Shown here: in pieces, positions 16,363-56,422 of the stretch
Position numbering within the stretch: the first letter of the stretch is position 1
How the letters are laid out: each line of letters begins with the position of its first letter
Origin: Candidatus Hydrogenedentota bacterium
GTDB lineage: Bacteria; Hydrogenedentota; Hydrogenedentia; Hydrogenedentales; SLHB01
Direction of reading: 5' to 3'
Assembly: GCA_019695095.1 (NCBI GenBank)
Contig: JAIBAQ010000010.1
Span: 7,845-71,844, forward strand
Length of the DNA stretch: 64,000 bases
The notes under the pieces: model-generated
Seen by the model: the letters and a program-made list of their open reading frames with translations, nothing else
What the model was told of the DNA's origin: nothing
Database searches by the model: none
Made by a program: the position numbers and the translations under genes

Positions 16363-16454
16363 CTATCCGGGATTACTCACGACATATCCGCAACGTCTTT
16401 CACGTGAACAATTTGCGTCGACGCTCAAACGCGCTGATGCAAATTACGGACTAT
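16363..16454 (-). mobile_element. MITE-like repeat, copy D (92 bp, large stem deleted)
   Basis: Matches both ends of copies B and C (TAGtccgtaatttgca... and ...tcgtgagtaatcccggaTAGgc) but lacks the central ~100 bp; begins on the TAG stop of the 16451-18196 gene. Confidence 0.7.
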
Positions 16455-18196
16455 GGCCCGGCGTTCAAGTTGACCGTCTCACCGCGACGTATGATTCGCT
16501 CTACGTTCTGGGTCACGTTGATGAGGGTGACTGCGCTGGGAGCGCGGTCAATTTTCGCGACGGTCCAGTCCTTATCCAGCAGGTCTCCGACTGCGGCGGT
16601 AACACGCTCTTCTGCGGCTCCTCCCCGGACTAGCTTCAAGACGGCCTTCTCCCCCATTGTTCCAACAAACGAAACGAGGAGTTGAGCAACCGGTGCAGGC
16701 GCCTGCTTCTGCGGCTGGGGCGGGGCAGGCGCGGAAACTGAGGTCTTCTGTGGTTTTGCTGCGACAGCGGGTCCGGGGTCGGCGGCGCGTGGTTCAACTT
16801 TTGCAGGGGGGGAAAGGTATGCAGCGCCTAAGTTGGTCTCAAATGGCATCAATTCGCGGGAATCGGAGTAGAACGTGAGGCGGATAGACTCCGCATTGGC
16901 GCCCAGCGCCGTGAGGCGCCGTAGGTCCAAGGTCAATTCCAACGACGATGCGGGGCTCACTCGGAAGGACCCCTCCCCTTCACCGGGCAACCCGGCGGTT
17001 GACCAGGCCGCCTCCGTGTTTGGAAGCATACGGTACTCACTGGTGCCGCGCTCCTTAACATAGACATCCACCCCAGCCTCGTGCCCCCCTCCACGCGACG
17101 CGGGCCGTGCCGACCACGAGGTGTAGACGTCAACGGCTTCTCCACCCTCGGATCGGCAAACCACGCGAATTGCGTCTTGGGCAGGCAGCACCAATGAGGC
17201 ATCGAATGTTACGCGAGCCCCGCCGCTTGAGGCATAAATCGCTGCCATAACCCCCAATACAGCCAACGTCATCACTGCGGCGAAGGCGGCAACGGCCGCA
17301 AGCCTTCGCTTAAGGGCGATGGAGACATCGCCAACGCGCAGGCCACCCATCACGATGAACGCTACACCCACTGCGCAATAGAGAATGCTCCCCGGCCGGA
17401 ATAGCTGTAGTAATTCGCTTGGAGCGAGGCCGAACAGACTTCCGCGGTTTGCAAGCGGACTGGGCAACATACCGGCGGTAGTTACCAAGACACCTAGAAA
17501 CAGGATTCCCCACCCCACAAGTCCCTTCTTGCGAATTGCCACTATGGGAATGGATACAAAAGGCAGCACGAAGAGGGGTAGCCACAGCAAATGCAGGGAA
17601 GTGGGCAGACTTCCGCCAGCGAGTCCAACCAGAGATCGGTCTATGTCTTCAACCCGAACCCAAGGCAGAAAGATGGAGGCTGCTGCCACGATGGAGAGTA
17701 GCAACGCCAAAACCCATTCCATGGTGCCAACCGGTTTGGGCGTATACGGGACTTCCCCCTGGTACTTTTCAAACGGCAAGTCGATTCTTCCGCCGAGTTC
17801 TTCGGGGTGCTCAGCCGAGAGGCGCGCTTTGACGGCTGTTACCCCTTCCTGAAGGGCAGTAATTCTTCTTCGCAGACTTCGATTGGCGTCATTCGCACCA
17901 CTCGCACTGATCGTTCCTCGCTTTACCGCGTTTGGCAGGTCTTCCTGCTCTTCACGTAGGAGACGAAGGTTTGCCTCCAGGCGAACGATACTGGCGCGCT
18001 CGGCATCGCGGAGTTTTCGGACCGTTGCCTCCGCGCGGGCCAGTTCGTGCTCCAACTCCGCGACCTGGAGGTCGTGCGAATTCTTGTCGAGACGGCCCGC
18101 CGCCAAATCCCGCTTGCACTGCGCCAGTCCCTCGCGGGCCTTCGCCCGATGGGACAGGGCAAGACGCAGCGCCAGATTTGGATCAGCCTTTTGCAC
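16451..18196 (-). CDS. Hypothetical membrane protein (coiled-coil N-terminus, several TM helices, periplasmic beta region, Pro/Ala linker)
   Basis: Long ORF overlapping the pyrG stop; hydrophobic segments in the middle; PAAEP-rich linker before a small C-terminal beta domain. Confidence 0.75.
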
Positions 18197-19820
18197 GGGC
18201 GTTTCGATACTCTAGGGCAGCCTTCACGAAGTCACGAAACAGCGGCTGCGGCTTCAACGGAGTCGACGTGAATTCGGGATGGAACTGCGACGCACAGAAC
18301 CAGGGGTGATCCTTCAATTCGATAATCTCCACCAATTCGTGGTCGCTGCGGGTATGAAGGCCACTGACTACAAGTCCGGCTTCTTTCTCAAGGCGTTCGC
18401 GGTACGAATTGTTGAATTCATACCGATGCCGGTGGCGTTCCGACACTGAGTCAGCGCCATACGCTTTGCGCGCCTTGGTCTTTTCCACCAGTTCGCACCG
18501 GTATGCGCCCAAGCGCATTGTGCCACCCAGTTCGCGAATACCGCGCTGCTCCGATAGCAGCGATATCACCGGATTCGCAGTCTCTGTATTGAACTCGGTG
18601 GAATTTGCATCCTTGAGACCAAGGCAGTTTCGCGTCATTTCGATTACGGCGATCTGCATGCCTAAACAGATTCCGAAGAAAGGTTTCTTGGCCTTGCGAA
18701 CGTACTCTACCGCCTTAATTTTACCTTCGATGCCACGCGAACCGAAACCGGGACCCACCAAAACGCCATCGAATTGTGCAAGGGCTTCTTCGGGTACCGT
18801 GCCGTTTTCGAAGGTTTCGGAATCGACCCACTCCAGTTTCACGCGGCAATCGTTGGCGACGCCTGCGTGCACAAACGCCTCATTGATGCTCTTGTACGCA
18901 TCGCCGTGGTGCGTGTATTTGCCGACAGCGGCAATACGAACTTCATGCTTGGGCTTGACGATGCGCTCGATGACGCCTTCCCACGCTGACAAGTTGATCT
19001 CACGTGTTTCCAGTCCGAGGCATCGAAGCACGATTTCGTCCAAGCGCTGCCGATGGAAATTCATCGGAATCGCGTACACGGGCTTGACGTCGGGGGCTCC
19101 AATAATGCACTCCTCGGTCACATTGCAGAACATCGCGATCTTCCGGCGCTGGTCCGGCCCAAGGTCCTGCGTTCCCGTGCGGCACACGATGACGTTGGGT
19201 TGAATACCAATATCGCGCAATGCCCGCACGCTGTGCTGCGTCGGCTTCGTCTTCAATTCTTCCGCGGCTTCAATGTAGGGTACCAAGGTAACATGGATGT
19301 TGCAGCACGGAGTAGGAGCTACGTCGAGATTGAACTGACGGATTGCCTCCAGGAACGGAAGGCTTTCGATGTCGCCTACCGTGCCCCCGATTTCAATCAG
19401 CGCCACATCCGCGTCGTCTTCCGGCTCGGCTGTCAATTCGCGGATTCTACGCTTGATTTCGTCGGTGATGTGGGGAATCACCTGCACGGTTTTACCGAGG
19501 TACTCGCCGCGTCGCTCCTTCTCAATGACAGAATGGTAGACACTACCGGTAGTCATATTGCTTTTCTGTGAGATTTTGGCGTTGGTGAAACGCTGGTAGT
19601 GTCCGAGATCCAGATCCGTTTCCGCTCCATCGTCGGTCACGAAGACTTCTCCGTGCTCGAATGGATTCATGGTTCCTGGGTCCACATTGATGTACGGGTC
19701 AAGCTTCATCATGGCGACTTTGTAGCCGCGAGCTTCCAGCAACAGCCCCAGACTTGCCGCGGCGATACCTTTACCAACCGACGAGACCACACCACCTGTT
19801 ACAAACACGTACCTCGGCAT
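18183..19820 (-). CDS. pyrG: CTP synthase
   Basis: [49 protein letters not shown]. Confidence 0.99.
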
Positions 19821-20593
19821 TACATCCTTCCTTCCAACGCGCCCTCAAGCATTGCGCGTACCTGCTCCAAGTCTTCCGGCGTATCCACTCCGATGCTCTG
19901 GTACTTCGTATCGACAACCGCGATGGGATAACCGCGCTCCAAGACCCTCAACTGTTCCAACTTCTCCAACTTTTCCAGCGACGACGGAGCCCATCGCGAA
20001 TAATCAAGCAAAAACTCGCGCCGATAGACATAAAGTCCAATATGCTGCCAATGGCACTTGGGCGCGGAAGCGCGGTCGGCGGCATCGCGAACGTACGGTA
20101 TCGGATACCGCGAGAAATACAAGGCGCGGCCCCGGCTGTCGCAGACGACCTTCACGACATTGGGATTTTCAATGTCGTCCGGATCCGTAATCAGGCGTCT
20201 GGCCGTCGCCATCGGTAAACTCGGGTCGATTAGCAAAGGCCGGATTGCCTCGTCGATGGTGTGGGGATCGATTAGCGGCTCATCGCCCTGCACATTCACG
20301 ATTAGATCGGCTTCCACTCCTTGGGCAACCTCCGCAATGCGATCCGTTCCCGAGGGGTGTTCAGGACGCGTCATCACCACGGGAATGCCCAGAGGCTCCA
20401 AGGCGCTTCGGACACAATCGTCGTCGGTGGCGACCAGAACGCGAGAAACCAGCGCAGCTTCGCAGGTTCGATAGTAGGTGTGTGCCACAAGAGGCTTTCC
20501 AGCCAGCGGCGCAATGACCTTCCCCGGGAACCTGGTGGAGGCGAAACGAGCGGGAATTACCGCCACAACTCCCCGGCTTCCAATAACTTGCAT
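19820..20593 (-). CDS. kdsB: 3-deoxy-manno-octulosonate cytidylyltransferase
   Basis: [49 protein letters not shown]; stop overlaps the pyrG start. Confidence 0.96.
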
Positions 20594-20809
20594 CACCAAG
20601 CCCCTTGCCCTGGCGGGCGATTTCCCTGCGTCGGAAATTGGCCAACGCGATATTCCCCAAAACGCACCAAAATACCGCGAAGGTTAGGAGATGTGTGGCG
20701 GAAGGCCCCGTGTCCTAACGGGATTTTATGTTAGCACAGGTGTGCTTCGATTTCAACGCAGAAAATCGCCAGAAACACAAATGATTGCGGTGGTTGGCAG
20801 AAAAAGGCC

Positions 20810-21874
20810 CTACATCTGGGACGTCAGACGCTCGGCACTTTGACGAGACGGTGGCGTGGGGGTAACGGTGTCCACCAAGCTCTTGCGGACACGGAAGCTG
20901 CGCCCTTGATACTCAATGTAGTAGTAGTCGTCCTCTTCGACAACCTTTTCGGCCTGCTGTACAGCGCCGCGTTTGAATTTGACTTGGAATTTCTGTTTTG
21001 GCTCTTCCTTCCGCACTACCGCGACCTGCTTGATGTCTTTCTCCGCGGAGGGGAGTTTGGCCTTCAAAAACGACCGATTCAGGTAGCTCGCATCGACCCC
21101 GTTCTTGGAGTACTGTTTCGAGAACCCAAGAACCTTCTTGACGTAATTTTGCGTTTCTTCAAAGGGAGGAATCCCGCCCCACTTCTTAACGTTTTCAGGG
21201 CCGGCGTTATAGCCCGCCAAGGCGTTGACCGGGTCGTTGTCGAACAACTCAAGCAGTTTGGCGATGTATTGAGTGCCGCCGGCGATATTTTCGGCGGGGT
21301 CGTGGATGTTCTTAACGCCCATATCTTCCGCTGTGGAAGGCATGAGCTGCATCAGACCACGCGCCCCTTTTGGAGACACTGCGTTCGGATTGCCGTTACT
21401 CTCGACTTTGATGATGGCGTAGATGAGCGATTCGTCGACGTTGTACTGGCCGGCATAGCGCCGCACGAGTTCGCCGATATCAGAGGTAGAGTAAGACTCA
21501 GGGGTAGCGCGGTTCCGGAAGCGTTCAGGAATTACAACAGGATCGTATTCCAGGGTGATTTCATTGTATCCGGCCCGATTGCGGTATTTTTCGGGGCGGT
21601 TGGTGAGGATCGTAACGCCCTTCTTGCTTTGAAAAGCACCAAACCCCTGCTTTCGCACTGAGGCCTCGCGCCGCTCTCGAAGCAATCGTTGGCGCAACTC
21701 TGATTGACGCGAAGCGCGCCGCTCTTCGCTGGCAGTGATGGTTGAGGTACTGAACGCCTGGGTGCCGGCAAAGGGCACCATAATGATGACACAAAGCACC
21801 ACGGCAAGAATCCGCGGCTCCAGGCACAGACGACCAAACCTACCCCATCCGTGCGAGTGAGATCGGGTTTTCAT
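20810..21874 (-). CDS. Soluble lytic transglycosylase (SLT domain)
   Basis: IIKVESNGNPNAVSPKGARGLMQLMP, LAGYNAGP, IPPFEETQNYV. Start uncertain; the ORF-track extension to 22126 looks non-coding. Confidence 0.9.
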   Translation of the reverse strand: MKTRSHSHGWGRFGRLCLEPRILAVVLCVIIMVPFAGTQAFSTSTITASEERRASRQSELRQRLLRERREASVRKQGFGAFQSKKGVTILTNRPEKYRNRAGYNEITLEYDPVVIPERFRNRATPESYSTSDIGELVRRYAGQYNVDESLIYAIIKVESNGNPNAVSPKGARGLMQLMPSTAEDMGVKNIHDPAENIAGGTQYIAKLLELFDNDPVNALAGYNAGPENVKKWGGIPPFEETQNYVKKVLGFSKQYSKNGVDASYLNRSFLKAKLPSAEKDIKQVAVVRKEEPKQKFQVKFKRGAVQQAEKVVEEDDYYYIEYQGRSFRVRKSLVDTVTPTPPSRQSAERLTSQM

Positions 21875-22370
21875 GTCAAGAGTATACCGAAATGCCCTGC
21901 CTCTTGCAAGAGGCTGTTTCTTCCCCAACGAACGTTCGTCAACATGGGACCGGACGTTTCCCCCGGTCGACCCGAGTGCAAAAACACTCCATCTGCCGAA
22001 AAACTTCCTAGAAGGATTGGGGCACGTTATTGATGCACGTATTGCTGCTGGTGAAGTCCTGAATTGCACGGCCGCGCGCGTCTCGGCGTAGAATATCCGG
22101 CCTTGTATTCCTAACTTGATGGGCACGCAGCAGAGAATTTGACTCTGTCGCCGACAATAATTAACCTCTTTGCGGAATGTGCAAGGGCTACTGGGGTTGT
22201 TAGTAGGTGAGGCGGGAGGCGATCCCTATCCGCTCACAGACGACACACGTGCTTTTTATGCTATTCACTTTTCGTTTTTGGGGACGATTTCAAATCCCGT
22301 GTCCCCCTGGCAGAGTAGGCAGAACGCCACGAGTTTATCGTGTGCTGACTATATTTGGGAGAACGTGCTC

Positions 22371-23375
22371 GTGGCAATTGAACGCGTTGTGCTCGCGAAT
22401 CCGAGAGGATTCTGCGCGGGAGTTGTACGGGCTGTCGACATAGTTGAGCAAGTACTGGACCTCGTGGACTCGCCCATTTATGTCTTTCACGAGATTGTTC
22501 ATAACGTGCATGTTGTCGATAGATTGCGCGCGCGCGGGGCGGTGTTTGTCGAAAGTATCGCTGATATTCCCGAGGGGGCTGTCTGCGTTTTCAGCGCTCA
22601 CGGCATCTCCCCCGAGGTTCGCAATGAAGCGAATGAGAAGGGGCTACGCGTAATCGACGCGACCTGTCCGCTCGTAACGAAAGTGCATCTGGAAGTTATT
22701 CGTTACGCAAAGGCAGGCTATTCCATCGTTCTGATTGGGCATGCGGGGCACGAAGAAGTTGAAGGTACGATGGGCGAAGCGCCCATGCATCTAGTAAGTA
22801 CCGTTTCAGATGTGGAATCACTCGCCGTGGAGAATGCGGAGAAGCTTATTTACCTTACGCAGACGACGCTGAGTCTGGATGACACAGCTCGAATTGTGGA
22901 GGCACTGAGAGCGAAGTTCCCCTCGATACAGTCTCCGCCGAAGGACGATATATGTTACGCCACGCAGAACCGCCAGAATTCCGTGAAGGAGCTGGCGGCC
23001 AAAGTGGATGTTGTATTGGTTACCGGTTCGCAGAACAGTTCGAATTCGCAGCGGCTTTGTGAAGTGGCCGCGAGCGTTGGCGTGTCGGCGTACCTTATTA
23101 ACGATGAAACTGAAATCCGGAGCGAGTGGTTTGAAGGCAAGCGCGTCGTTGGCGTGACGGCAGGCGCGTCGGCCCCGGAAGACTGTGTGCGCCGGATACT
23201 TGACCATCTCAAGACTTTGGGAGCAGCGGTAGTTGAAGAGCTGCGAACGGCCACCGAGAAGGTTCATTTCTCGATGCCTCGCGAATTTTTTGCACTCGTG
23301 GAGTCGTTGCGACACACGGCTCCCGGTACAACGCAGCAGAGCATGGTGCCGAGTCCCAGCGCAATGAATCAGTAA
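22371..23375 (+). CDS. ispH: 4-hydroxy-3-methylbut-2-enyl diphosphate reductase
   Basis: LANPRGFCAGV, DATCPLVTKVH, ICYATQNRQ (three Fe-S Cys), SSNSQRL, GVTAGASAPE; GTG start after GGGAG. Confidence 0.97.
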   Translation: MAIERVVLANPRGFCAGVVRAVDIVEQVLDLVDSPIYVFHEIVHNVHVVDRLRARGAVFVESIADIPEGAVCVFSAHGISPEVRNEANEKGLRVIDATCPLVTKVHLEVIRYAKAGYSIVLIGHAGHEEVEGTMGEAPMHLVSTVSDVESLAVENAEKLIYLTQTTLSLDDTARIVEALRAKFPSIQSPPKDDICYATQNRQNSVKELAAKVDVVLVTGSQNSSNSQRLCEVAASVGVSAYLINDETEIRSEWFEGKRVVGVTAGASAPEDCVRRILDHLKTLGAAVVEELRTATEKVHFSMPREFFALVESLRHTAPGTTQQSMVPSPSAMNQ

Positions 23376-23451
23376 CAAGCTGCGCCGGCACCGTTACGGC
23401 GGAAGAGGTAACGGCGGCGCGATAATTGCCGGGTAGGAAAGGTAGGAGAAA

Positions 23452-25386
23452 TTGGCCGTAACAGCAGCGAATCAAATGGGCTCCGCGTTGCTCCCATTGG
23501 GAGACACAATTAACGCGGGCGTGAAAACGGCTATTGAGGCTACGCAGGCTTTTCTGTTGAGCCAACAGCATGCCGACGGTCACTGGTGCGCCGAACTTGA
23601 AGGCGACACGATCCTCGAATCCGAGTACATCCTGACGATGCACTACATCGGGCGCACCCAAGAAGACCGGGTGCGCAAGGCTGCCAATTATCTACGCAGG
23701 CAGGCGCTGCGTGAGGGAGGCTGGAGCATCTATCCGGACGGGCCTGCTGATGTCAGCGCTTCGGCCAAGGCGTATTTCACGTTAAAACTCCTCGGGGACA
23801 GCGAGAACGCGCCTCACATGGTGAAGGCGCGGGAGGTCATTCGGAAGCTTGGCGGACTCGATGCCACGAATAGTTTCACGCGGCTCTATCTGGCCATCTT
23901 CGGTCAATATCCGTGGGAGAAGTGCCCCGCCGTGCCTCCCGAGATTCTGCTTCTTCCATCCGTTGCACCGATCAATCTCTACGAGATGTCGTCATGGAGC
24001 CGTGGAATAGTCGTACCGCTGTCGGTGATCTGGGCCTACAAACCGTACTGTCCAGTTCCCGAGCACGCCAACATTCCCGAACTCATGGTCGAGAACCCGA
24101 ATGAGCCGACTCGGCAGACGGGCATGTGGCCCGCATTCTTCATGGCCATTGACTCAACGCTCAAGGCCGTGGAAAGCTCGCGGATAACGCCTATGCGCGC
24201 CAAGGCCTTGCGCGCCTGTGAAAAGTGGATGATAGAACACTTCGAGCAGAGCGACGGCATTGGGGCGATTTTCCCGCCCATAATCAACAGCATTATTGCG
24301 CTGCGCTGCCTGGGATATCCGAATGAGCATCCGCTGACGCAGTCGCAGATTCGCGAATTGGAGAAACTGGAAATCGAGGAAGGCGAAACCCTTCGCGTGC
24401 AACCTTGTTTTTCTCCGGTGTGGGACACGGCCTACGTGCTTCATGCGTTCGTGGAATCCGGAATGGATCGAAGCCACCCGGAGTTGTTGAAGGCCTCCGA
24501 TTGGCTACTTGCAAAAGAGGTTCGGAAACCGGGGGACTGGAAACTTAAGAACCCCAATGCGAAACCGGGCGGCTGGTACTTCGAGTATGCCAACGAGTTC
24601 TATCCCGATTTGGACGACACTTTCGAAGTGCTTACGACGCTTCGCCAAATCCACTATCCCGATTCGGCAAATGAACAGCGGAAGCAAGCGGCACTGAAGC
24701 GTGGCCTGGACTGGGCGCTCTCGATGCAGAACGTGGACGGCGGCTGGGGCGCATTCGATCGGGGCTGCGACAAGGAATACCTGACGCAAATTCCGTTTGC
24801 GGATCACAATGCGATGATCGATCCCAGCACAAGCGATATCACAGCGCGCGGAATCGAGGCGTTGGTTACCATGGGGTACTCCAGAAATCACCCTGTGATG
24901 CAGCGGGCATTGGAGTTTGTCCGAAACCAGCAGGAAGCGGATGGCACATGGTTTGGACGCTGGGGCGTCAACTACATTTACGGTACGTGGCTCGCTTTGT
25001 GCGGCTTGCGCGCGGCTGGCGAAGACATGACGAGCGCGAACATTCAACGCGCCGCAAAGTGGCTTCGGACGGTTCAGAACAGCGATGGCGGTTGGGGCGA
25101 GTCGCCTCGAAGCTACGACGACCCCTCGCAAAAAGGCAAGGGCGTCAGCACCGCCTCACAGACAGCCTGGGCGCTCATGGGACTCATGGCGACGGGCGAC
25201 TACACGTCGCCGAGCGTGCTGAAAGGAATTACGTATCTTCTGGAGACTCAGAATGCCGATGGAACATGGCACGAGGATCAGTGGACCGGGACTGGATTTC
25301 CGCGGGTGTTTTACCTGCACTACCACTATTATGCAATCTACTTCCCGTTGATTGCGCTAGGTAAGTTCCGAAAATTTCATTCCTAG
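23452..25386 (+). CDS. shc: Squalene-hopene cyclase
   Basis: Catalytic DXDD (YPDLDDT), several QW repeats (QNVDGGWG, QEADGTW, QNSDGGWGE), SPVWDT, GRWGVNYIYGT, GTGFPRVFYLHY. Confidence 0.97.
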   Translation: MAVTAANQMGSALLPLGDTINAGVKTAIEATQAFLLSQQHADGHWCAELEGDTILESEYILTMHYIGRTQEDRVRKAANYLRRQALREGGWSIYPDGPADVSASAKAYFTLKLLGDSENAPHMVKAREVIRKLGGLDATNSFTRLYLAIFGQYPWEKCPAVPPEILLLPSVAPINLYEMSSWSRGIVVPLSVIWAYKPYCPVPEHANIPELMVENPNEPTRQTGMWPAFFMAIDSTLKAVESSRITPMRAKALRACEKWMIEHFEQSDGIGAIFPPIINSIIALRCLGYPNEHPLTQSQIRELEKLEIEEGETLRVQPCFSPVWDTAYVLHAFVESGMDRSHPELLKASDWLLAKEVRKPGDWKLKNPNAKPGGWYFEYANEFYPDLDDTFEVLTTLRQIHYPDSANEQRKQAALKRGLDWALSMQNVDGGWGAFDRGCDKEYLTQIPFADHNAMIDPSTSDITARGIEALVTMGYSRNHPVMQRALEFVRNQQEADGTWFGRWGVNYIYGTWLALCGLRAAGEDMTSANIQRAAKWLRTVQNSDGGWGESPRSYDDPSQKGKGVSTASQTAWALMGLMATGDYTSPSVLKGITYLLETQNADGTWHEDQWTGTGFPRVFYLHYHYYAIYFPLIALGKFRKFHS

Positions 25387-25537
25387 TCAGCAATTTGCAG
25401 GACTTTAAGGTTATGCCATGAGGATTTCTCGCGAACACGCTCTGTCTTTGGAGAGCAGCTTTGCTTTTCGCCACAAGTCTCGTAAGCACACTGGTTACGA
25501 GATAGGCTCAAGTGTGTTCGTGAGAAATCCGGGCTAG
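25383..25537 (+). mobile_element. MITE-like repeat, copy A (155 bp, 5' hairpin partly deleted)
   Basis: CTAG at both ends, the left one containing the shc stop; 17-bp outer stem 25422-25438/25514-25530; inner stem TCTCGTAA/TTACGAGA. Confidence 0.8.
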
Positions 25538-25595
25538 AGCGAGCGTTGAGAATTGAACGAGTAGTACTTCAAAGAGAACGGACTTTAAGAGAATC

Positions 25596-26597
25596 ATGCG
25601 ATTTCCACTACATATCACGATGGACTCCATCAAGCACCAGGTTCGAAACGCGCTCAAAGGCAATAAGCGCTATCCCATGGTGATGATGCTGGAACCACTG
25701 TACACGTGCAATTTGGCGTGTATCGGTTGTTCGACCGAACGGCATACTGGCAAGCTCAAGGACCGCGTCGCACTCGACTCATGTTTTCAGGCGCTGGATG
25801 ATTGCGGCGCGCCTATCGTGTCGATCTGCGGGGGTGAACCGACTCTCTATCCAGAGTTGAAAGAGCTGATTGAGGGTATCGTGGCGCGCAAACGCCACAT
25901 CTACTTGTGCACAAACGCAATCTGCCTCGCCGATAAGGTCTACGGGAAGATTGCGCCCCACAAGCGCCTTACCGTGAATATTCATCTTGACGGCATGCGC
26001 GAAACCCACGACATGGTGTGTGCGCGGAAGGGCGTATTCGACAACGCGATCGAGATGCTGAAGGAAGGTAAACGCCTCGGCTATCACATGTACACCAACA
26101 CGACCGTCTACCGCGAAACGGAGATGGCTGAGGTGGAAGAGTTATGCCGGGTATGTACCGAGGCGGGCGTGGACGGCATGTTGATAGCGCCGGGCTATCA
26201 TTACGAGACAGTCGAGAAGGATATCTTCCTCACACGCCGCGAAATCAACGAGAAGTTCGCCAAAGTGATGGAGCTTTCCAAGCGGTACCGGCTAAGTTCC
26301 ACGCCCATGTACCTGGAATTCGCGGCAGGCATGCGCAGCTACAACTGTTCGCCGTGGAGTACGGTTACGTTCACCCCGAAAGGCTGGAAAGGCCCCTGCT
26401 ACCTCTTGGGCAAGCAGTTCTTCGAGACGTGGCAGGAATTCTGGACTACAATGGATTGGGCCTATTGGGAATCGCGAGAAGACCGCGCCTGTCAGAACTG
26501 CATGATGCACAGCGGGTTCGAGGCCTCGGCGGTCTTCGAACTCAAGAACAGCCCGAAGGACATGCTGAGGATGGCAGCCTGGAATCTCCTCGGCTAA
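25596..26597 (+). CDS. hpnH: Adenosyl-hopene transferase, radical SAM
   Basis: MLEPLYTCNLACIGC (CxxxCxxC), VSICGGEP, HLDG, C-terminal GWKGPCYLL...CQNCMMHSGFE; follows shc. Confidence 0.93.
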   Translation: MRFPLHITMDSIKHQVRNALKGNKRYPMVMMLEPLYTCNLACIGCSTERHTGKLKDRVALDSCFQALDDCGAPIVSICGGEPTLYPELKELIEGIVARKRHIYLCTNAICLADKVYGKIAPHKRLTVNIHLDGMRETHDMVCARKGVFDNAIEMLKEGKRLGYHMYTNTTVYRETEMAEVEELCRVCTEAGVDGMLIAPGYHYETVEKDIFLTRREINEKFAKVMELSKRYRLSSTPMYLEFAAGMRSYNCSPWSTVTFTPKGWKGPCYLLGKQFFETWQEFWTTMDWAYWESREDRACQNCMMHSGFEASAVFELKNSPKDMLRMAAWNLLG

Positions 26598-26615
26598 CCG
26601 AGAGTAGATTTAACG

Positions 26616-27353
26616 TTGAGCAGTAACAAGGCGACAAGCGCCAAGACTTGGTGCATCGCCGCGGCGATGCCGGGCGAGATCGCAGCAGTACAGCGCCTTG
26701 CATTGCCCAACATTTCGTACCTGATTACGGGTGTGGGCACACGCAATGCCGAGCGCGCAGCGTTGCAGGCCATTTCTCAATCGTCGTTCGACGCGCTTCT
26801 CCACATCGGTTTTGCAGGGGCGTTATCCCCCGCGCTAGCCGTAGGTGACATTCTGTTCGCGAATGCCGTCGCAGGCCCGCACGAGGTCCGCATCGACTTA
26901 GGGTCGCCTCGAGTCGCGGAGAAGACACATATTGGCGGTGTGAACGTGCGAGTGGGTACGTTTGTGACTCGTGATCGCGTCCTCACGACGAGTCAGGATA
27001 AGCGTGAAGTCGCCGCGACATTGCGACAAGGTTCCTTGGGGTGCGCCGACATGGAGTCTGCGCCCGTCGCGCGCATATGTGCGGAACACGGTATTTCCTA
27101 CATGGGCCTTCGGTGTATCACCGATACGCTCGACGAGGACTTGCCGCTCGACCTCAATGCCTGCCGGGATCAAAGCGGCAATATCGCCACGGGGCGGGTG
27201 ATTTGGGCGCTTGCGCGCAAACCGACTGCGTTACCGGGACTCATGGAACTCCGTCGGCGAGCGCACAGTTGCGCAGCCATCCTGGCGCGCGTCATCTCAG
27301 AGTTGCTTAAGCCATTGCCGAGCGGAGAAACAGACCTGGGCAATCGAGCATAA
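26616..27353 (+). CDS. hpnG: Hopanoid-associated nucleoside phosphorylase
   Basis: PNP/MTA-phosphorylase fold motifs TGVG, IGFAGAL, ADMESA, RCITD; directly after hpnH. Confidence 0.8.
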   Translation: MSSNKATSAKTWCIAAAMPGEIAAVQRLALPNISYLITGVGTRNAERAALQAISQSSFDALLHIGFAGALSPALAVGDILFANAVAGPHEVRIDLGSPRVAEKTHIGGVNVRVGTFVTRDRVLTTSQDKREVAATLRQGSLGCADMESAPVARICAEHGISYMGLRCITDTLDEDLPLDLNACRDQSGNIATGRVIWALARKPTALPGLMELRRRAHSCAAILARVISELLKPLPSGETDLGNRA

Positions 27354-44789: not shown

Positions 44790-45662
44790 CTATGCGGATG
44801 CGCCCAGCAACTTCCGCGCAAACTCCGCATTCTTTTTGAAATCAGCCACACGATCGGTCGACGGGCAACTCGTCTCGAGCACGACCCAACCGCTGTAGCG
44901 AATATCGCGCATGGCCTGGCCAACGGCTTTCATATCGACCTTGCCCTCGCCCAGATAGCTGGCGCCGTCCTTGAAATGGAACTGGCAGATTCGATCTCCA
45001 AGCATCCGGATTTCGGCAGGCACGTCGTATTTCTTGTGCGTGGAGTTGCCAACATCGTAATAGACCTTAACGGCATTACTCTGTATACGGTCCAGAATCG
45101 CGAGGTTGTCCTTGGCGGAGAGGTAATTCTCAAGCCCCAGGATTACCCCAGACTTTTCGGCAAGGGGAGCCGCGGCTTTAACGCGCTCGACCAGGATATC
45201 CACGTCTGCGGTCTTGAGCTTGTTCTCCTTCAAGAGGTCGCCCTTTCCAAAAAAGGCAAGGAGGATCACGCGCGCGCCCAAGTCCTGCGTGCCCGAAATA
45301 GTCTGTTCGAGCCACTGGGGCGCTTTCTCTTCCGAGACAAACGGATTGTCGTTGAGAAAGCCCATCGCCGTGGACGACACCACAATACCGGCGGCCTCGC
45401 ACGCCTTCTTGTACTCGGCTCTGAGATTGGCATCCGCGATCGGCAAGGTGTCTCCCGGACCGCCGGAAGAGACCTCTACTCCATCGAGTCCGATAGACTT
45501 GCCGTACGCGATACTCTCAGGACCATTGACTCCCAACGACCAATCGCATGCGCTGAGCCGAATCTCCAGCCCCTTCTCCTCTGCCAGCGCGCGCTTGGTA
45601 AACACTAAGGCGCCCAAAACGGCCGAAGATCGTCCAATGAATTGCCTGCGGGTAGTCTGCAT
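44790..45662 (-). CDS. Tat-exported sugar phosphate isomerase/epimerase (xylose-isomerase-like TIM barrel)
   Basis: TRRQFIG signal; GLENY, YYDVGN, FHFKD, LGEGKVDM, VLET metal-site pattern; GGAGGAG RBS. Confidence 0.88.
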   Translation of the reverse strand: MQTTRRQFIGRSSAVLGALVFTKRALAEEKGLEIRLSACDWSLGVNGPESIAYGKSIGLDGVEVSSGGPGDTLPIADANLRAEYKKACEAAGIVVSSTAMGFLNDNPFVSEEKAPQWLEQTISGTQDLGARVILLAFFGKGDLLKENKLKTADVDILVERVKAAAPLAEKSGVILGLENYLSAKDNLAILDRIQSNAVKVYYDVGNSTHKKYDVPAEIRMLGDRICQFHFKDGASYLGEGKVDMKAVGQAMRDIRYSGWVVLETSCPSTDRVADFKKNAEFARKLLGASA

Positions 45663-45691
45663 TGTTGCGCTCCTCCAGCGTGTCAAGTGAC

Positions 45692-45885
45692 CCAGCCCCG
45701 ATCTCTCACGAACACAATTGAACCTCTTTCGCAACCAGGGTGTTTGCGAAACTTGCGGCGAAGAACATAGCGGTTATCCGAGAACAAAGTGTGTTCGCGA
45801 GAGATCCTCATGGCATAACCTCAGCGTCTTACACGTGAGCAATTTGCGTCGGCGCTCAAGCGCGCCGGTGCAAACTGCGGACTAC
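45692..45885 (-). mobile_element. MITE-like repeat, copy B (194 bp, full length)
   Basis: Same length and layout as copy C; ends GTAG and CTGG; outer stem GATCTCTCGCGAACAC/GTGTTCGTGAGAGATC; inner stem TTTCGCAA/TTGCGAAA. Confidence 0.8.
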
Positions 45886-45953
45886 GCGTCATTATGCCAA
45901 GAATAGCACCAATTGGGGTAGGACTTGGCAATCCTCGGTCACAAGCACCCAGG

Positions 45954-49913
<3,960 letters not shown>

Positions 49914-50361
49914 CCAAGGAGACTCCTACTGATTGGTGCTTATGCGCAACCTTCACACATGCCGTTCCAGAAAGACTCACTAAACTTCTGTGCGATAAAG
50001 GCTAGTGGGCACCGCAGCGGAGGGGAGAAATGATCATGAATCACGGCACACAGTACGCTACCAGTCTTGTGCATACTCGTGTGCCTGATCACAATACAGC
50101 TCCAACGAACCAGCAGAAATACACCGCCTACACAGCAAAAGCCAAGTCCATAAATATTAACATGCGGTCGGCAGCCTGTCAAACGCGCATAACAAGAAAT
50201 ACCATTTTTTATGGTTAAACAATGCTCCGTATATTCGAAATTTTACTTATGCGAATCTACATTATCCCGAATCTGCTTCAAGCAAGCGCTGGTATTTTCC
50301 TGCGCGACATGCTAGTCCCTTGACATAATCATGAAAAACAGCGAATTCGCACACCGCATGA

Positions 50362-53088
50362 CTAGTCGGTGAGTTGGGCCTCGAATTGGTACGATCCTGA
50401 ATGAACAAGGTAAGTGGACCTACCGTTCTCATGGCCCAGGAAATCCACCCCATGTGCTGATTTGGCCGGCACTTGGCTCTCAAGCACGGATTCGGATGAC
50501 TTGGACGGCACGCAAACGGTGGCTGTGGTGTTCGGCGGAATCTCAATTGTCCATGTGAACGTGTGGTCTTTTGCCCTCCATTCGCTTACGATGGGACCCC
50601 TTATCGTCGCGTGCTTAACCCTGACCCAGTCTAAGCCATCCGGAACGTCCGGACTCAGGACGAAATGGCGGTAGCCTGGTGACAACTCGTCAGAGCGGAT
50701 ACCGCCCAAGCCGCGATAGAACCATTCCTCCGCATGTCCAAGCATGCAATGATTGTTGGACGAAGCAGGGTTGGCGTCCCACGCTTCTGTCAGCGAGGTG
50801 GCATTCTTGTTGAGCTGGTCGACATAGCCGGGGCCCTCATCTTGCACGACCATCTTGTACAGGGTGTCACCAGCGCCGTTGTCGGTCAGTGTGCGCACGA
50901 GATAGGAGAATCCCACGTCTCCAGCGGTTACGTGGTACCCCCCACTCTTAATCCGGTCGACCAGTCCCTCAAGCACCGCAGCACGGTCCGCTTCCGGGAC
51001 CAACCCCACGACGAACGGCATCGCGCTGGCGGTTTGGCTTCCCTGGTCGTAGTCTCCGGGATTGGCTTTGTGAAACTGCCGGTTAAACGCGTCGCGCACG
51101 AGCACGGCACGCTCGGCAAACCGCTTGGCGTCATCGGGCTTCCCTAGTACCGTGGCGACTTTCGCCATTACGCTCAGGTCTTGGTAATAGACGGCCGTCG
51201 CCGTCAACCCCTTGGAAGTCAATTGCGATTCCCCCGGGCTCTTGGGTCCGATGTCGTACCAGTCGCCCAGCCCGTGAGATACGATGTTATCCTGCGCAGT
51301 CGTTGCGAGGTAGTCGACGTACCGCTGCATGGTTACGTAATTGACCTCCAAAACACGGCGGTCGCCGTAGGTCAGGTAGGTATACCAAGGGTTAAGAATG
51401 CTGGCACTACCCCATTCGGGTGAATCGACAAAGCCACCGTTGAAGACGGTGTATTCCGGCGCGATGTCGGGTACGAGGCCGTTCTCGCGCTGGGAATCGC
51501 GCATGTCGCGCGAGACCTTTGCGTAGAACCGCGGCACATCGTAGTTGTACATAATCGCGCCCGCGAGCAGATGAGAAACCTCAAGCCATCCAAGCTTCTC
51601 GCGGTGCGGACAATCCGTCAAGACACTCTGGAAATTGCTCCGAATGGCGGTGAGTATCAGTTCGTGGATACGGTTGACCGTCTCGTTCGAGCACGAGAAT
51701 TCGCCGGCAATCTCCGCGGCGGCATAGGTAAAGTCGCCTTTCAGATCAAGGACAATCGGCCCCTTGGAGCGCCGTTCGGCCATCTTTTCCGGAGTCGCTC
51801 CCTCGACCTGAACGTAGCGGAATCCATAGTAGGAGAATTGGGGCCTCCATTCTTCGATTCCCTTTCCTGCCAACGTGTAACTAAACCACACAGGCCCACC
51901 GGAACTACGTTGGGTAACGAGGCCATCTCCATCCAACAGCTCTCCAGGAATCAACTTTACCGTCGATCCCCTCGGACCTTTCACGCGAAGAATCGGTCGC
52001 CCAGAGGTGTTCTGCCCGAGGTCGTACACGAATATGCCCGGCTTCGGCTGCGTTACCCCCACGGCGTCGCGTACGCGCATAACCTTGATCGGCAAACTGC
52101 CTTCGCTTGTAAGGCGTCCGCCGGGACCTTGGCTTTCAACCGCAGGCACCCAGCTAGAATCACCATATTGAGGCATGGTCCAACCGGGCTTCACTTCGCG
52201 AGCATCGTAATCCTCCCCGCCGTAAATGCATGAGAAGACCACCGGGCCGGGGCTTGTCTTCCACGATGAGTCGGTGACGACGTCATGCGTCGTACCGTCC
52301 TCGTACTCGAGGTGCAGGATGGCCGTGAGCGAGGGCGGTCCAAAGGACCCCTTGAATTTCACGTAACGGCCGCCTTTGACGTTGTACATGCCGTTTCCGA
52401 GCATCACGCCGACGGCGTTTGCGCCCTTCTGCAGCAGCGTAGTGACTTCATAGCTGCTATATACACACGTCTTCTTGTAGTTCGTCCAGTCTGGCGCAAA
52501 TACGGAATCTCCGACTCTATTGCCATTCAAGTAAAGTTCATGGAAGCCAAGGCCGCAGAGGTACACCACGGCCCGCCTGATTCGCCCTTCGACTGCGAAC
52601 TCCTTCCGAAACAGGGGCAATGGACCCGATCCGTCAAGTTGGCTCGTAATCCACTTTCCGGTCCATTCTTCCGGACGCAGTACCCCCATGGCCCACTGTG
52701 CAGGCTTGCTCCATCCGCTCTCTACTCCATCTTGGTTCCACACACGCACTCTCCAAAAGCAAACCTGGTGCGAAACAAGTGGAGTGCCTCCATAGACGAT
52801 TTGGCTTTGCTCTGGTGATTCAACCTTGCCGGAATCCCACAGGTCACCCTTTCCCTGATCCAGGATACCCGCAGACGTGGCCACAAGAACTTGGTAGGCC
52901 GACTGGCGCTGCGCCCTTGTTGAAGACTGAAGCTCCCAGCTCAGCCGAGGACTCGCCACATCGAGTCCGATAGGGGACCGCAAATACTCGCAGCGCAAGT
53001 TGACAGCTTCAATCTGAGCCCACGACTCGAACGACGCGCTTGCCAGAATGGCAAGAAGCACCACCCATTTGATAGTAAGTATCTTCAT
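50362..53088 (-). CDS. Alpha-L-rhamnosidase (GH78), secreted
   Basis: LRCEYLRSPIGLD, YDLGQN, FSYYGFRYVQV, TDCPHREKLGW, TSLTEAW, NHCMLG. Confidence 0.93.
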   Translation of the reverse strand: MKILTIKWVVLLAILASASFESWAQIEAVNLRCEYLRSPIGLDVASPRLSWELQSSTRAQRQSAYQVLVATSAGILDQGKGDLWDSGKVESPEQSQIVYGGTPLVSHQVCFWRVRVWNQDGVESGWSKPAQWAMGVLRPEEWTGKWITSQLDGSGPLPLFRKEFAVEGRIRRAVVYLCGLGFHELYLNGNRVGDSVFAPDWTNYKKTCVYSSYEVTTLLQKGANAVGVMLGNGMYNVKGGRYVKFKGSFGPPSLTAILHLEYEDGTTHDVVTDSSWKTSPGPVVFSCIYGGEDYDAREVKPGWTMPQYGDSSWVPAVESQGPGGRLTSEGSLPIKVMRVRDAVGVTQPKPGIFVYDLGQNTSGRPILRVKGPRGSTVKLIPGELLDGDGLVTQRSSGGPVWFSYTLAGKGIEEWRPQFSYYGFRYVQVEGATPEKMAERRSKGPIVLDLKGDFTYAAAEIAGEFSCSNETVNRIHELILTAIRSNFQSVLTDCPHREKLGWLEVSHLLAGAIMYNYDVPRFYAKVSRDMRDSQRENGLVPDIAPEYTVFNGGFVDSPEWGSASILNPWYTYLTYGDRRVLEVNYVTMQRYVDYLATTAQDNIVSHGLGDWYDIGPKSPGESQLTSKGLTATAVYYQDLSVMAKVATVLGKPDDAKRFAERAVLVRDAFNRQFHKANPGDYDQGSQTASAMPFVVGLVPEADRAAVLEGLVDRIKSGGYHVTAGDVGFSYLVRTLTDNGAGDTLYKMVVQDEGPGYVDQLNKNATSLTEAWDANPASSNNHCMLGHAEEWFYRGLGGIRSDELSPGYRHFVLSPDVPDGLDWVRVKHATIRGPIVSEWRAKDHTFTWTIEIPPNTTATVCVPSKSSESVLESQVPAKSAHGVDFLGHENGRSTYLVHSGSYQFEAQLTD

Positions 53089-53197
53089 TCCCTCACCCCC
53101 TGTATCGTGTGCCGTTGAAGCCGCCCAACTCGACGGATATTGTAGCTCAACGGGACAGGCAGCCGGGAGCTTTGGTTACATTTGGGGGAAGCGAGAA

Positions 53198-53584
53198 ATG
53201 CGGTTGTTCGAGAACCACTTTGGGCGGTGGCAAGTCTACATTTTTGAAGTGCAGTTCCTGGTCTTCACCGTGCTGAGTTATGTGGGCGCGAAAGGCGGTC
53301 TGGATGCTTCAGAGCCTCCCAAACGATTATGGACCGTCACATGCGCTGCCATCACTGGGCCGTTCGCGGGCGCAATAGCGCGCGGAGGCCAGTCGTGTTG
53401 CTTGGAATTCTCGCTCCAGATTCTGCCGGTATGCGGTGGGGCTCTCGCAATGGGCACAGTGGCGCAATTCTTACGGCTTCCATTCGGACGATTCAACAAG
53501 CCGATGCGGCTGGCGGCATGGAGTCTGGGGCTTCTGGTTTGGTTCTCGGGGATTCCGGTGTCGTTTCTGCATGCATTCTCGTGA
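53198..53584 (+). CDS. Small hypothetical membrane protein
   Basis: 128 aa with 3-4 hydrophobic segments; GGGGGA upstream of ATG 53198. Confidence 0.55.
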   Translation: MRLFENHFGRWQVYIFEVQFLVFTVLSYVGAKGGLDASEPPKRLWTVTCAAITGPFAGAIARGGQSCCLEFSLQILPVCGGALAMGTVAQFLRLPFGRFNKPMRLAAWSLGLLVWFSGIPVSFLHAFS

Positions 53585-53653
53585 CTCTGGCAGCAGCCTC
53601 TGATTAACCCGGACTACTTTTTCACGAGGCACGACCCCGGCAAAAAATGCGCG

Positions 53654-54565
53654 TTAACCCAGTAGGTTCTCTGCATCTGCGCGTAACGAATCGGGAACAT
53701 CGTTGCAGCGCATCAAGCGATGAAGATAGGTTCGGGATTCGTCGCGTCTACCAAGTGCGACCAAGATCTTCGCCAGGGCAATGTATGCAAAGTGGAACTC
53801 GGAATCGCTGCTGATCGCATTTGCCAATACGGCGACGGCTTTGTCGAATTGCTTCTGCCCAATGTAGACATCCGCAAGAAACGAACAGACTTCGCGATCC
53901 GCGGGGTTAATTTCAAAGGCACGATCCGCATAGTGAAGAGCCCGCTCGATATTGCCCTCCATTTTCTGGCGGTCGGCGGCGAGCAGGAAGCCTTTCGCGC
54001 GCACATCAGGTGCAACGTCTTTGGGACAGAAGAAACTCCCGTACGCTCCGACCGGGAGTTCATAGGGCTGAAAAATGTTTGGATACGGGTGGAAGTCTTC
54101 CGGATACCAAACGCTTCGGTGCAATTCCCCGGGATTCCCGTGACACTCCGGATGATCCCAGCCTTCACCAAGCGGAATATTCACCAGCAAAGCACGAGTC
54201 GCCTTCTCGTACAATTGTTCAAGGACCCGCTCGCCCTCATCTTTGTGCAGGTGCTCAATAACATCGCCGGCGATAATCAGCTCGTATTGGTCCAGAGTCG
54301 GTGCAATCTCACGAATGTCGCCGATGATGATGTTCGAATACAGTGCGCGTTGGTGAGTCTGAATATAGGGTTCAAAGAGTTCTATACCGTCTATCCGGGT
54401 TTTCCACGTCGAAGGTTGGACACGAGTCTCCATAACGTCCAGATATTCACGGCAAAGGAATCCCCACATTCCAAACCCGCACCCGACATCAAGAACTGAC
54501 TTGGGGTGCAAGGAGTAGATGCAAGTCATACAATGCGAAATTTGGATCATTGCGCTAACGGGCAT
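53654..54565 (-). CDS. Class I SAM-dependent methyltransferase with C-terminal TPR repeats
   Basis: VLDVGCGFG, GIELF, GDVIEHL; C-terminal TPR-like helices; divergent from fliW. Confidence 0.85.
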   Translation of the reverse strand: MPVSAMIQISHCMTCIYSLHPKSVLDVGCGFGMWGFLCREYLDVMETRVQPSTWKTRIDGIELFEPYIQTHQRALYSNIIIGDIREIAPTLDQYELIIAGDVIEHLHKDEGERVLEQLYEKATRALLVNIPLGEGWDHPECHGNPGELHRSVWYPEDFHPYPNIFQPYELPVGAYGSFFCPKDVAPDVRAKGFLLAADRQKMEGNIERALHYADRAFEINPADREVCSFLADVYIGQKQFDKAVAVLANAISSDSEFHFAYIALAKILVALGRRDESRTYLHRLMRCNDVPDSLRADAENLLG

Positions 54566-54915
54566 AGACGAATCCCACTGGTTTTGCTCCTCCTCAGAAC
54601 ATGACAAGTGTATCATTATCCTCCATCAGGCGATAGACTACGTATCAGGGGGGAGCCTGGACCGATCTTGCGACAACGTCGACCTATCCTGCTTCTCCGC
54701 GACAGGGCTTGCTGCAAGCGTCTTCCCTACCGGCTGCCTGCGGTCCGGTCTGCGCGCATCGGTCATCAATTTGCGTCCATGTCCACTGAAAACCAGCGAC
54801 TTCGGGGAGCAGCGACCGTCACTAAGGGGCGTGCCAACTAACGCTTGCGCCGGGGGACGGATTCGGGCATACTTAAGCAGCGCTAAGACTTAGGCAGGGT
54901 TGAGAACTGTCGAGC

Positions 54916-55389
54916 ATGGAACTAAAGACTACACGCTTCGGGACACTTCAAGTAGACCCAGCCACCATAGTGACTTTCACTCAGCCGATTCTGGGGTTTC
55001 AAGAGTTTCGCCGTTACATCACCTTGCCGGGGCCAAGTGAACATTTGACGTGGCTTCAGTCAACGGACTCGGGCGATTTGGCCTTTATACTGCTTGACCC
55101 TAAGACGATAGTTGCCGACTATCATGCGGGGATCCGGCCGGATGAGATGACTGAGTTGGCAGTGTCTTCACCGGAAGAATTGGATGTGTACACGCTGATC
55201 GTAGTTCCGCAGGATCCTTCGAAGGTCCGGACGAACCTGAAGGCTCCAATTCTAATCAATCCCAAGCATCGCCTTGGAAAACAGACGATCTTGGATCGAT
55301 CCAACTATCCGGTTCAGTACTTCCTCGCGCAGGCAAAGCGCTCCGGCACGGAGGCGGGAGAGGTGGCGAATGCTCGTTCTGACGCGTAA
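54916..55389 (+). CDS. fliW: Flagellar assembly factor FliW
   Basis: [33 protein letters not shown]; overlaps csrA by 20 nt. Confidence 0.95.
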
Positions 55390-55591
55390 AGAGAATGAGA
55401 ACATCATGATTGGGGACGACATTGTCGTGAAGGTTCTCGATGTCCGCGAAAATCAAGTGAAGATTGGAATCGTGGCTCCACGCTCGGTAGCCGTGCATCG
55501 CCAAGAAGTCTACGACGCTATTCAGGCGGAAAACTCGCAGGCAGCCCGGGTCACCCAAGTGGAAGCGATCACCAATCTGATACCGCGTTAA
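55370..55591 (+). CDS. csrA: Carbon storage regulator CsrA
   Basis: MLVLTRK...[11 protein letters not shown]...[20 protein letters not shown]; Asn55 and a C-terminal extension as in FliW-regulated CsrA. Confidence 0.97.
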
Positions 55592-55605
55592 GGGGAGATG
55601 AAGAC

Positions 55606-56232
55606 ATGGATGTCATTATCGACGGGAACCGCACTCACACCTTTGAAACCGCCCCATCCGAAGTAATTGCCGCCCTGGGAGAAGTTAGTGCCACGCTTCA
55701 AAGCGAAGGCCGCGCAATCGTGGGAATCAACATCGACGGACAGAATCTCACCGCCGATCGCTTGGCCGAAGTTCTGGAAAACAAGACTCCCGATCAAGTT
55801 GGGACGATTTCAGTATCTACGGAACGTGTCGCGATTCTGGTGGGACAAGCGCTCGACGAGCTTGAACAAAGCCTCCCGAATCTGCCTCAAGCCTGTCACG
55901 AACTTGCGCATGTATTCCAAGGCGCAGACCCGACGCAAGGTTTTCAACACTTTCAGGTGCTTGCCGAGCTGTGGTCACATGTGAAGGAGCGCGAGAATAC
56001 CGTCGCGCATGCGCTTGGATTGGATTTGGATTCGATGAAGGTTGGCGATACTTCCGTCAAAATGCTTCACGAGCACCTGAACAGAACATTGGATGACGCG
56101 GTGCGCGCGATGGAGTCTCAGGATTTGGTGCTTCTTGGCGATCTTCTCGAATACGAACTGGCGCCCCGCGCCGAGTCCGAAGCGGAGATAGTCTCGATGC
56201 TCAAGGCGCAGGCGCAGGAGCGGGCCAGCTAG
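55606..56232 (+). CDS. Hypothetical protein, flagellar-locus associated
   Basis: 208 aa, GGGGAG RBS, helical C-half ending DLVLLGDLLEYELAP. Confidence 0.75.
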   Translation: MDVIIDGNRTHTFETAPSEVIAALGEVSATLQSEGRAIVGINIDGQNLTADRLAEVLENKTPDQVGTISVSTERVAILVGQALDELEQSLPNLPQACHELAHVFQGADPTQGFQHFQVLAELWSHVKERENTVAHALGLDLDSMKVGDTSVKMLHEHLNRTLDDAVRAMESQDLVLLGDLLEYELAPRAESEAEIVSMLKAQAQERAS

Positions 56233-56422
56233 CCCGCAATTTGCACCGGCGCAACTTAACGCCGATGCAAATTGCTCAAGCGCAAGGCGTTGAGGTTATG
56301 CCATGAGGATTTCTCGCGAACACACACTGTATGTGGAGAACTATCCCCATTTTCACTGCAAGCCGCACGAACGCACTGGTCACGAGATAGTCTCATGTGT
56401 GTTCGTGAGAAATCCGGACTAG
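56229..56422 (+). mobile_element. MITE-like repeat, copy C (194 bp, full length)
   Basis: CTAG at both ends, the left one containing the upstream stop; 5' hairpin GCAATTTGCA/TGCAAATTGC; 19-bp outer stem 56307-56325/56397-56415; ends 2 nt before an ATG. Confidence 0.82.

Follow-up and report, generated by a model that had tools for sequence, protein, structure and literature searches.

A 64,000-nucleotide stretch of DNA from a Candidatus Hydrogenedentota bacterium (GenBank assembly GCA_019695095.1, contig JAIBAQ010000010.1, positions 7,845 to 71,844; here called the window) carries four copies of a short repeat, three of which begin on the stop codon of a gene. This locus raises the question of what kind of element the repeat is, how it came to occupy these positions, and why it should be found on stop codons. 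[quoted passage not shown]

Four copies with defined ends

A preliminary description of the window had placed four homologous copies on both strands, and sequence comparison, pattern searches, and a profile search all agreed with those positions. Pattern searches allowing up to 3 mismatches returned these four copies only (0 of 100 shuffled sequences gave a match), and an nhmmer profile found the same four in the window. Copies A (56229 to 56422, plus strand) and B (45692 to 45885, minus strand) are full length, each being 194 bp as originally reported; for copy A, this figure includes CTAG at both borders. Copy C (25383 to 25537, plus strand, 155 bp) lacks the inner part of hairpin 1, the first of the element's two hairpins, and is bordered by CTAG on both sides. 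Copy D (16363 to 16454, minus strand, 92 bp) has lost the core of hairpin 2, with a deletion junction at a TGAG microhomology common to both arms of that hairpin, and is bordered by ATAG on both sides. The borders of copy B have decayed to GTAG and CTGG, and in its 5' half it differs little from the family consensus. Both termini were kept in four of four copies, the deletion derivatives C and D included; since even the short copies retain both ends, the unit is a discrete one with fixed limits, not a loose mosaic. The termini, (T)CCGCAATTTGCAC and GTGAGAAATCCGG(R), which can also be read as TCCGCAATTTGCAC ... GTGAGAAATCCGG, are imperfect inverted repeats conserved in the four copies: (T)CCGCAATTTGCAC and (T)CCGGATTTCTCAC are equal at 9 or 10 of 14 positions, and the particular pair quoted at the outset does match at 9 of 14.

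Copy A has on one side the stop codon of a DUF8042 gene (208 aa) and on the other the start codon ATG (56425) of a 1111-aa glycosyltransferase/methyltransferase/TPR gene. Its left target copy (CTAG, 56229 to 56232, plus strand) contains the TAG that is the stop codon of the upstream gene, and its right target copy (CTAG, 56419 to 56422, plus strand) ends 2 nt before the downstream ATG. The DUF8042 assignment comes from a precomputed Pfam match; a fresh Pfam scan (E below 1e-5) gave none. The 5' end of copy C lies on the TAG stop of the squalene-hopene cyclase gene (shc), with hpnH 58 nt farther on, and the 5' end of copy D lies on the TAG stop of a 581-aa open reading frame (ORF) that is followed by a convergent gene. 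That three copies begin on a TAG stop had been recognized from the start; copy B does not, being located 68 nt past a TGA stop.

Empty sites in relatives

Counterparts of the copy A locus are present in two Hydrogenedentota relatives, L023 (a Logan contig) and L024 (an NCBI metagenome-assembled genome), whose DUF8042 proteins are, respectively, 72% and 68% identical to the 208-aa protein of the window. In both relatives, the DUF8042 gene is followed after 2 nt by a large glycosyltransferase gene, and the junction, which reads ...gccagCTAGgcATG... / ...caggagcgggccagCTAGgcATGgcctcgccc..., has one CTAG. The window at copy A consists of the junction letters of the relatives plus 190 bp plus a second CTAG. 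The single CTAG at the orthologous site therefore demonstrates precise insertion with target duplication at copy A. It had been set down in advance that orthologous empty sites should reduce to a single CTAG, and those in L023 and L024 do so. The longest ORF for the glycosyltransferase gene in the window (56272 to 59760) opens at a TTG inside the element; the relatives support the ATG at 56425 (1111 aa) as the start.

The locus of copy B gave a similar picture. The distance from a conserved GGCATAATG to the ribosome-binding site of a TIM-barrel gene is 20 nt in L023 versus 212 nt in the window, which, as judged from these sequences, is consistent with L023 carrying an empty site for copy B. 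In the window, copy B lies between GGCATAATG, which resembles a -10 box, and the GGAGGA ribosome-binding site (flanks 45886 to 45905 and 45662 to 45691), and for this reason it is probably part of the 5' leader of the TIM-barrel gene, the predicted product of which is xylose isomerase-like and has a twin-arginine translocation (Tat) signal. Next to copy B, a gene for a 1319-aa hybrid histidine kinase (multiple PAS, HisKA, HATPase, and receiver domains) occupies 45954 to 49913. This gene is not in L023 (3406 to 3520), where the corresponding site lies between the TIM-barrel and rhamnosidase genes, and L024 has a large gene, cut by the contig end, at the position of the kinase gene. For copy C, a scan of JGI metagenomes based on HpnH found relatives of at most 72% identity, too distant for comparison at the nucleotide level. 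The empty sites in two relatives, along with the many copies with different flanks described below, bear out the earlier proposal that the element is non-autonomous and mobile.

Copy number and distribution

Logan contigs of X1, the activated-sludge sequencing run that best matches the window, were aligned to the element. Between 138 and 153 contigs aligned, with unrelated flanks, and many of these were 1 to 6 kb long at the organism's own depth of 8 to 12. The initial count of four copies thus holds for the window, but the family is larger, extending to >130 Logan contigs of one sludge run. The conserved core had a summed contig depth of ~4000 in X1, versus ~9 in single-copy flanking DNA; combined with the window's density of 4 copies in 64 kb, this depth suggests that there are probably a few hundred copies per genome, a rough figure, since summed contig depth is not a count. 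The middle region of copy A was unique in X1. The family boundary is sharp, in that the alignment of 17 contigs ended exactly at the T of TAG. A shorter variant, with 51 nt less in the middle, was present in X1 and in another run, X3. Positions 19227 to 19259 of the window, within a 545-aa ORF (18183 to 19820), had a summed depth of ~3400 in X1 versus ~8 around them, which indicates another highly repeated or widely shared sequence that is unrelated to the element.

Sequence words from the element turned up only in runs from sludge and wastewater, all belonging to the studies in which the window itself is present. By nhmmer, the element was not found in 108 other loci (747 kb), L023 and L024 included. 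A 17-mer scan of GTDB representative genomes gave chance matches only, a two-arm pattern had no match in JGI metagenomes, two seed-only matches in viral contigs were not extended by nhmmer, and blastn against plasmids gave no match. Exact look-ups of the CsrA and DUF8042 proteins of the window returned no record. The family is restricted to one uncultured Hydrogenedentota species of activated sludge, and no copy was found outside it.

Borders and target site

Borders were read on the element's strand from the loose ends of single contigs in low-depth runs. Left borders were CTAG, ATAG, GTAG, CTAA, and ATAA, with TGAG and CCAG seen once each; right borders were mostly CTAG, with ATAG, TTAG, CTAA, ATAA, GTAA, ACAG, and CTGG making up the others. 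The first border base, and less often the last, varies alike at both ends, and the adjoining CCG/CGG is constant. In the three intact window copies, left and right borders are concordant (CTAG in A and C, ATAG in D). A 4-bp duplication of NTAG is the simplest reading of these borders, from which we infer a 4-bp rather than a 2-bp size; the rarer borders would be single transitions of TAG.

Formally, a 2-bp duplication could be proposed instead. In a MITE derived from IS630/Tc1-mariner elements, only the TA of (C)TAG would be duplicated, and the G and C would be part of the inverted repeats (GTCCG...CGGAC). The empty site CTAG is equally compatible with such an origin. Furthermore, IS630 prefers the TA in 5'-CTAG-3', according to Tenzen and Ohtsubo 1991 as cited in PMC2170065, and IS870 and ISMt1 insert in CTAG and obtain the stop codon of their ORF from its TAG (PMC13630536); a 39-codon frame in our element, described below, ends likewise. 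However, an IS630-type duplication requires that the bases beside the TA be encoded by the element, and these bases vary as flanks do (C, A, T, or G before the TA and G or A after it), whereas the adjoining CCG/CGG is invariant; copy D has an A on both sides. We consider an IS630-type origin unlikely.

The same borders bear on the possibility of a single-strand HUH/Y1 element, derived from IS200/IS605 or of the REPIN type, that inserts 3' of TAG via two subterminal hairpins and makes no duplication. Two subterminal hairpins are indeed present, the strand relation between the element and TAG is fixed, and co-orientation with the stop-bearing gene would follow automatically from such a mechanism. 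In addition, in the consensus-like copies B and C, the sense strand folds ~13 to 14 kcal/mol better than the antisense strand, via G-T/G-U pairs. However, copy A folds better on the antisense strand, and the right tetranucleotide is not constant (CTAG, ATAG, TTAG, CTAA, ATAA, and others) and, in copies A, C, and D, is the same as the left flank. A right tetranucleotide that varies with the left flank argues for a duplicated target rather than an element-encoded cleavage site. The two copies on each strand of the window also do not fit a replication-strand bias; the GC skew of the window gave no readable replication direction. Insertion as a single-strand HUH/Y1 element is therefore, in our view, highly unlikely.

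Stop codons and orientation

The preliminary description had proposed that the element targets stop codons. The location of three of the four copies on TAG stops supports this proposal in part, but an NTAG target, the prevalence of TAG among stops, and a survival bias could suffice to produce it. Among long ORFs in the window, TAG is the commonest stop (19 of 43, with TAA at 13 and TGA at 11), and it is also frequent in L023 (6 of 15) and L024 (2 of 5). CTAG is scarce in the window (42 occurrences versus 243 expected from base composition); five CTAG sites lie on stop codons, and the element occupies two of them. At the three occupied stops, the duplicated TAG restores the stop codon. Target choice combined with loss of intragenic insertions would account for most of the stop-codon pattern.

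Orientation is a different matter. Each of the four copies in the window points the same way as the gene upstream of it, and the non-palindromic borders ATAG and GTAG (also ATAA and GTAA) were found on about ten distinct flanks. This fixed orientation suggests something beyond target choice and survival. Either asymmetric target capture or purging of insertions in the opposite orientation could lock the orientation.

Architecture, fold, and covariation

Full copies share one order: border tetranucleotide, (T)CCG, hairpin 1, an invariant GAGGTTATGCCATG, hairpin 2, CCGG(R), and border tetranucleotide, so that both hairpins are subterminal, 3 to 4 nt off the borders. In copy A (plus strand), hairpin 1 is a 5' palindrome at 56234 to 56275, GCAATTTGCA-cc-GGCGC ... 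GCGCC-ga-TGCAAATTGC, which is conserved family-wide at a depth of ~2000 to 2700 with copy B as the reference. The most conserved core (56290 to 56325) comprises GAGG, TTATGCC, ATG, and then the left arm of hairpin 2 (GAGGATTTCTCGCGAACACAC). The variable middle (56326 to 56396) contains two small covarying stems and differs by 28 to 44% between copies without indels. The right arm of hairpin 2 (56397 to 56418), GTGTGTTCGTGAGAAATCCGGA, is also the right terminal inverted repeat. The arms of hairpin 2 are 20 to 21 bp long, and the variable middle with its two small stems measures 70 to 75 nt. Family-wide, there is hardly any variation in the first 100 nt at the 5' end or in the final 25 nt.

The RNAs of the two full copies fold at -81 and -84 kcal/mol, with z scores against shuffles of -7.2 and -5.1. 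Where hairpin 2 is present (three copies), 93% of cells pair in the predicted structure. Pairs in which both bases had changed numbered 7 of 44 in these three copies, compared to 2.9 ± 1.3 in shuffles, of which 2 in 500 reached 7, and to 0 to 2 in slid controls; the test used three linked sequences and a structure predicted from those same sequences. The compensatory changes quoted originally are real (alignment columns 18/118, 71/93, and 75/89) and are among the seven pairs, and the one copy said to have a degraded inner stem is copy A, which starts at 56229. Templated correction of palindromes by template switching can also yield compensatory changes and thereby mimic selection. For the earlier inference that the fold is under selection, the seven double-change pairs are suggestive, but palindrome correction could have produced them as well. 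On the basis of the modeled structure, selection on the fold is plausible, and the folded, covarying structure together with the fixed orientation suggests an additional single-strand (RNA or DNA) constraint. With regard to recognized structural classes, Rfam gave 0 matches in the window at the gathering score and only noise from microRNA models (E > 0.2), and a known RNA family was rejected on that ground. An integron attC-like site was rejected because the core motifs did not fit by eye, and an intrinsic terminator was likewise rejected.

A small open frame

A frame of 39 to 42 codons (MRISREH...VFVRNPG) starts at an ATG 7 nt after a GAGG that resembles a Shine-Dalgarno (SD) sequence. The frame is open in copies A, B, and C and ends on the terminal TAG in A and C, features that could be taken to mean that the repeats are small protein genes of one family, each with a ribosome-binding site of its own. 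Against this, substitutions at codon positions 1 and 2 are at least as frequent as those at position 3, and the "conserved" N- and C-terminal residues of the peptide correspond to the two inverted-repeat arms. The frame is broken in copy D and in one shorter variant (another shorter variant keeps it). The sense 42-aa frame had no relatives among 5.8 billion proteins of searchable length range and no Pfam match. A protein search with an antisense 61-aa frame gave no candidates. Given the lack of a codon-position signature and of relatives, we rejected a small-protein gene, to which we attach almost no probability. By analogy, the frame may instead be a relic of a parent element, since the ORFs of IS870 and ISMt1 likewise end on the target TAG. 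Speculatively, it could also be a relay that keeps translational coupling.

These data also bear on whether a former insertion is now kept by the host as an RNA module, serving as an mRNA stabilizer, a processing site, or a translation relay between cistrons. The excess of double-change pairs over shuffles and slid controls would be expected of such a module, as would the co-orientation of four of four window copies with transcription. The GAGG-N7-ATG core is the most conserved part, and frame 0 is open in three of three copies and in ten further fragments. There are precedents in ERIC, Correia (PMC2229807), and bcr1 (PMC3184786). The covariation, however, comes from only three linked sequences and a structure predicted from the same sequences, and template switching gives compensatory changes as well. 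Nor is the open frame significant (0 stops in 85 codons in the ten fragments, compared to 4 in 88 and 1 in 88 in the other frames), and the reverse frame is just as open. Within the element, neither a promoter nor a terminator consensus was found, and the relatives do without the element at the same junction. We consider a host-kept RNA module unlikely to be the correct explanation.

Comparison with known elements

The closest likeness among described elements is in kind rather than in sequence. MITEPsy1 of Pseudomonas syringae is 100 nt long, is present in about 6 copies, has ISPsy2 as its partner, and is probably derived from the IS5 family (PMC3189936). Like our element, it is small and non-coding, and its terminal inverted repeats are imperfect; on insertion it duplicates 4 nt of target at CTAG or YTAA, and its mobility has been demonstrated. 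In contrast, the element described here measures 190 nt without the duplicated target, occurs in hundreds of copies, and contains two long internal hairpins; its borders include ATAG and GTAG, its orientation to TAG is fixed, and it shares no sequence similarity with MITEPsy1.

Correia/NEMIS elements of Neisseria and ERIC/IRU elements of enterobacteria are 100 to 200 bp long, make TA-containing duplications, reach hundreds to ~700 copies, and are co-transcribed with flanking genes into long stem-loop transcripts, often with open frames (PMC2229807, PMC10969869). They differ from our element in that they occur in other phyla, duplicate TA, and lack sequence similarity to it, and neither a stop-codon preference nor a fixed orientation is described for them in these two reviews. 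The bcr1 repeats of the Bacillus cereus group (~155 bp) are flanked by short direct repeats and have a non-conserved genomic distribution; they are transcribed, and compensatory base changes maintain their fold (PMC3184786). Unlike our element, bcr1 makes a 5-bp duplication, has another structure, and has a much lower copy number.

IS630, IS870, and ISMt1 resemble our element in inserting at 5'-CTAG-3', and the ORF stop of IS870 and ISMt1 comes from the target TAG, as does that of the frame here. These elements, however, are autonomous, with a transposase, and duplicate TA, whereas the borders here favor 4 bp. REP/REPIN sequences (GTAG head, mobilized by RAYT) are also intergenic hairpin repeats with a TAG-ending tetranucleotide beside a palindrome and are strand specific. 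In contrast, REPs are much shorter and make no target duplication, and the tetranucleotide here is a direct repeat that depends on the site. The IS1380 family, whose ends begin with CC and which makes 4- to 5-bp duplications, is a further candidate relative.

The repeat represents a new family, although the element is of a kind already known. Precedents for its size and fold, its TA-containing duplication and copy number, and its co-transcription context and compensatory changes are found among MITEPsy1, Correia, ERIC, and bcr1. MITEs are poorly catalogued beyond the Proteobacteria and Firmicutes, and a loose literature search pairing MITE terms with the name of the phylum found no paper on a Hydrogenedentota MITE.

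Explanation of the repeats

The features expected of a MITE are present: a length of 92 to 194 bp, no coding signature, terminal inverted repeats (albeit weak), a target duplication with an empty site, and dispersed copies. Discrete ends, the empty site, the duplication, the high copy number, and the restriction to one lineage are shown by the data; the type of transposase and the survival bias are what we infer from them. We propose that a DDE-type transposase acting in trans would mobilize the element by a cut-and-paste or copy-paste route, with the imperfect terminal inverted repeats as its recognition sequences ((T)CCGCAATTTGCAC / GTGAGAAATCCGG(R)). Cleavage at NTAG (in most cases CTAG or ATAG) with a stagger of 4 bp would leave the tetranucleotide duplicated. 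Because TAG is the most frequent stop codon and is regenerated by the duplication, insertions that fall on stop codons or in the short gaps of operons would be tolerated and accumulate, and intragenic insertions would be lost.

Several observations weigh against a MITE of this description. The terminal inverted repeats are weak (9 to 10 of 14 positions), and the near-invariant 100-nt 5' part far exceeds the length that a transposase binding site needs. A symmetric DDE mechanism would give both orientations, and it does not predict the near absence of CTAT and CTAC, the complements of the non-palindromic borders, which were found at most once or twice. ATAG and GTAG borders are also at odds with the symmetric target, YTAR or CTAG, expected of IS5, IS701, and IS630 enzymes. 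Duplication of YTAR, as in the IS5 and IS701 families, had been brought forward in the preliminary description; the first border base is often A or G (ATAG, GTAG, ATAA) rather than Y, and with many borders of the ATAG or GTAG type lying outside YTAR, this attribution was not established. No transposase or full-length insertion sequence with matching termini was found within the 64-kb window. Finally, presence/absence polymorphism within the species was not seen, no contig of the sludge runs skipping the element.

Implications

The orientation lock leads to a more specific idea, namely, an "operon-compatible" MITE that always carries, on its own strand, TAG or TAA as a stop-type triplet at either end and runs in the same direction as the gene on whose stop codon it sits. 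We regard this idea as doubtful. If it is true, such an element would preserve the upstream stop and carry translational coupling over a folded RNA of 190 nt, and the SD-like GAGG, the ATG, and the open frame would bring a ribosome to the original termination point before the next cistron. In copy A, 2 nt separate the terminal stop from the ATG, just as in the element-free relatives. A translational relay of this kind would then be the reason why operon junctions have been colonized by the hundred.

The MITE family also has practical consequences. With a few hundred copies, it breaks short-read assemblies (Logan contigs end inside the element), and it misleads gene callers, as in the ORF at 56272 to 59760, so that knowing the family betters the annotation of sludge genomes. 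For the biology of the family, its strand-locked NTAG borders and compensatory stem changes provide a testable case for RNA-level constraints on small transposons at operon junctions.

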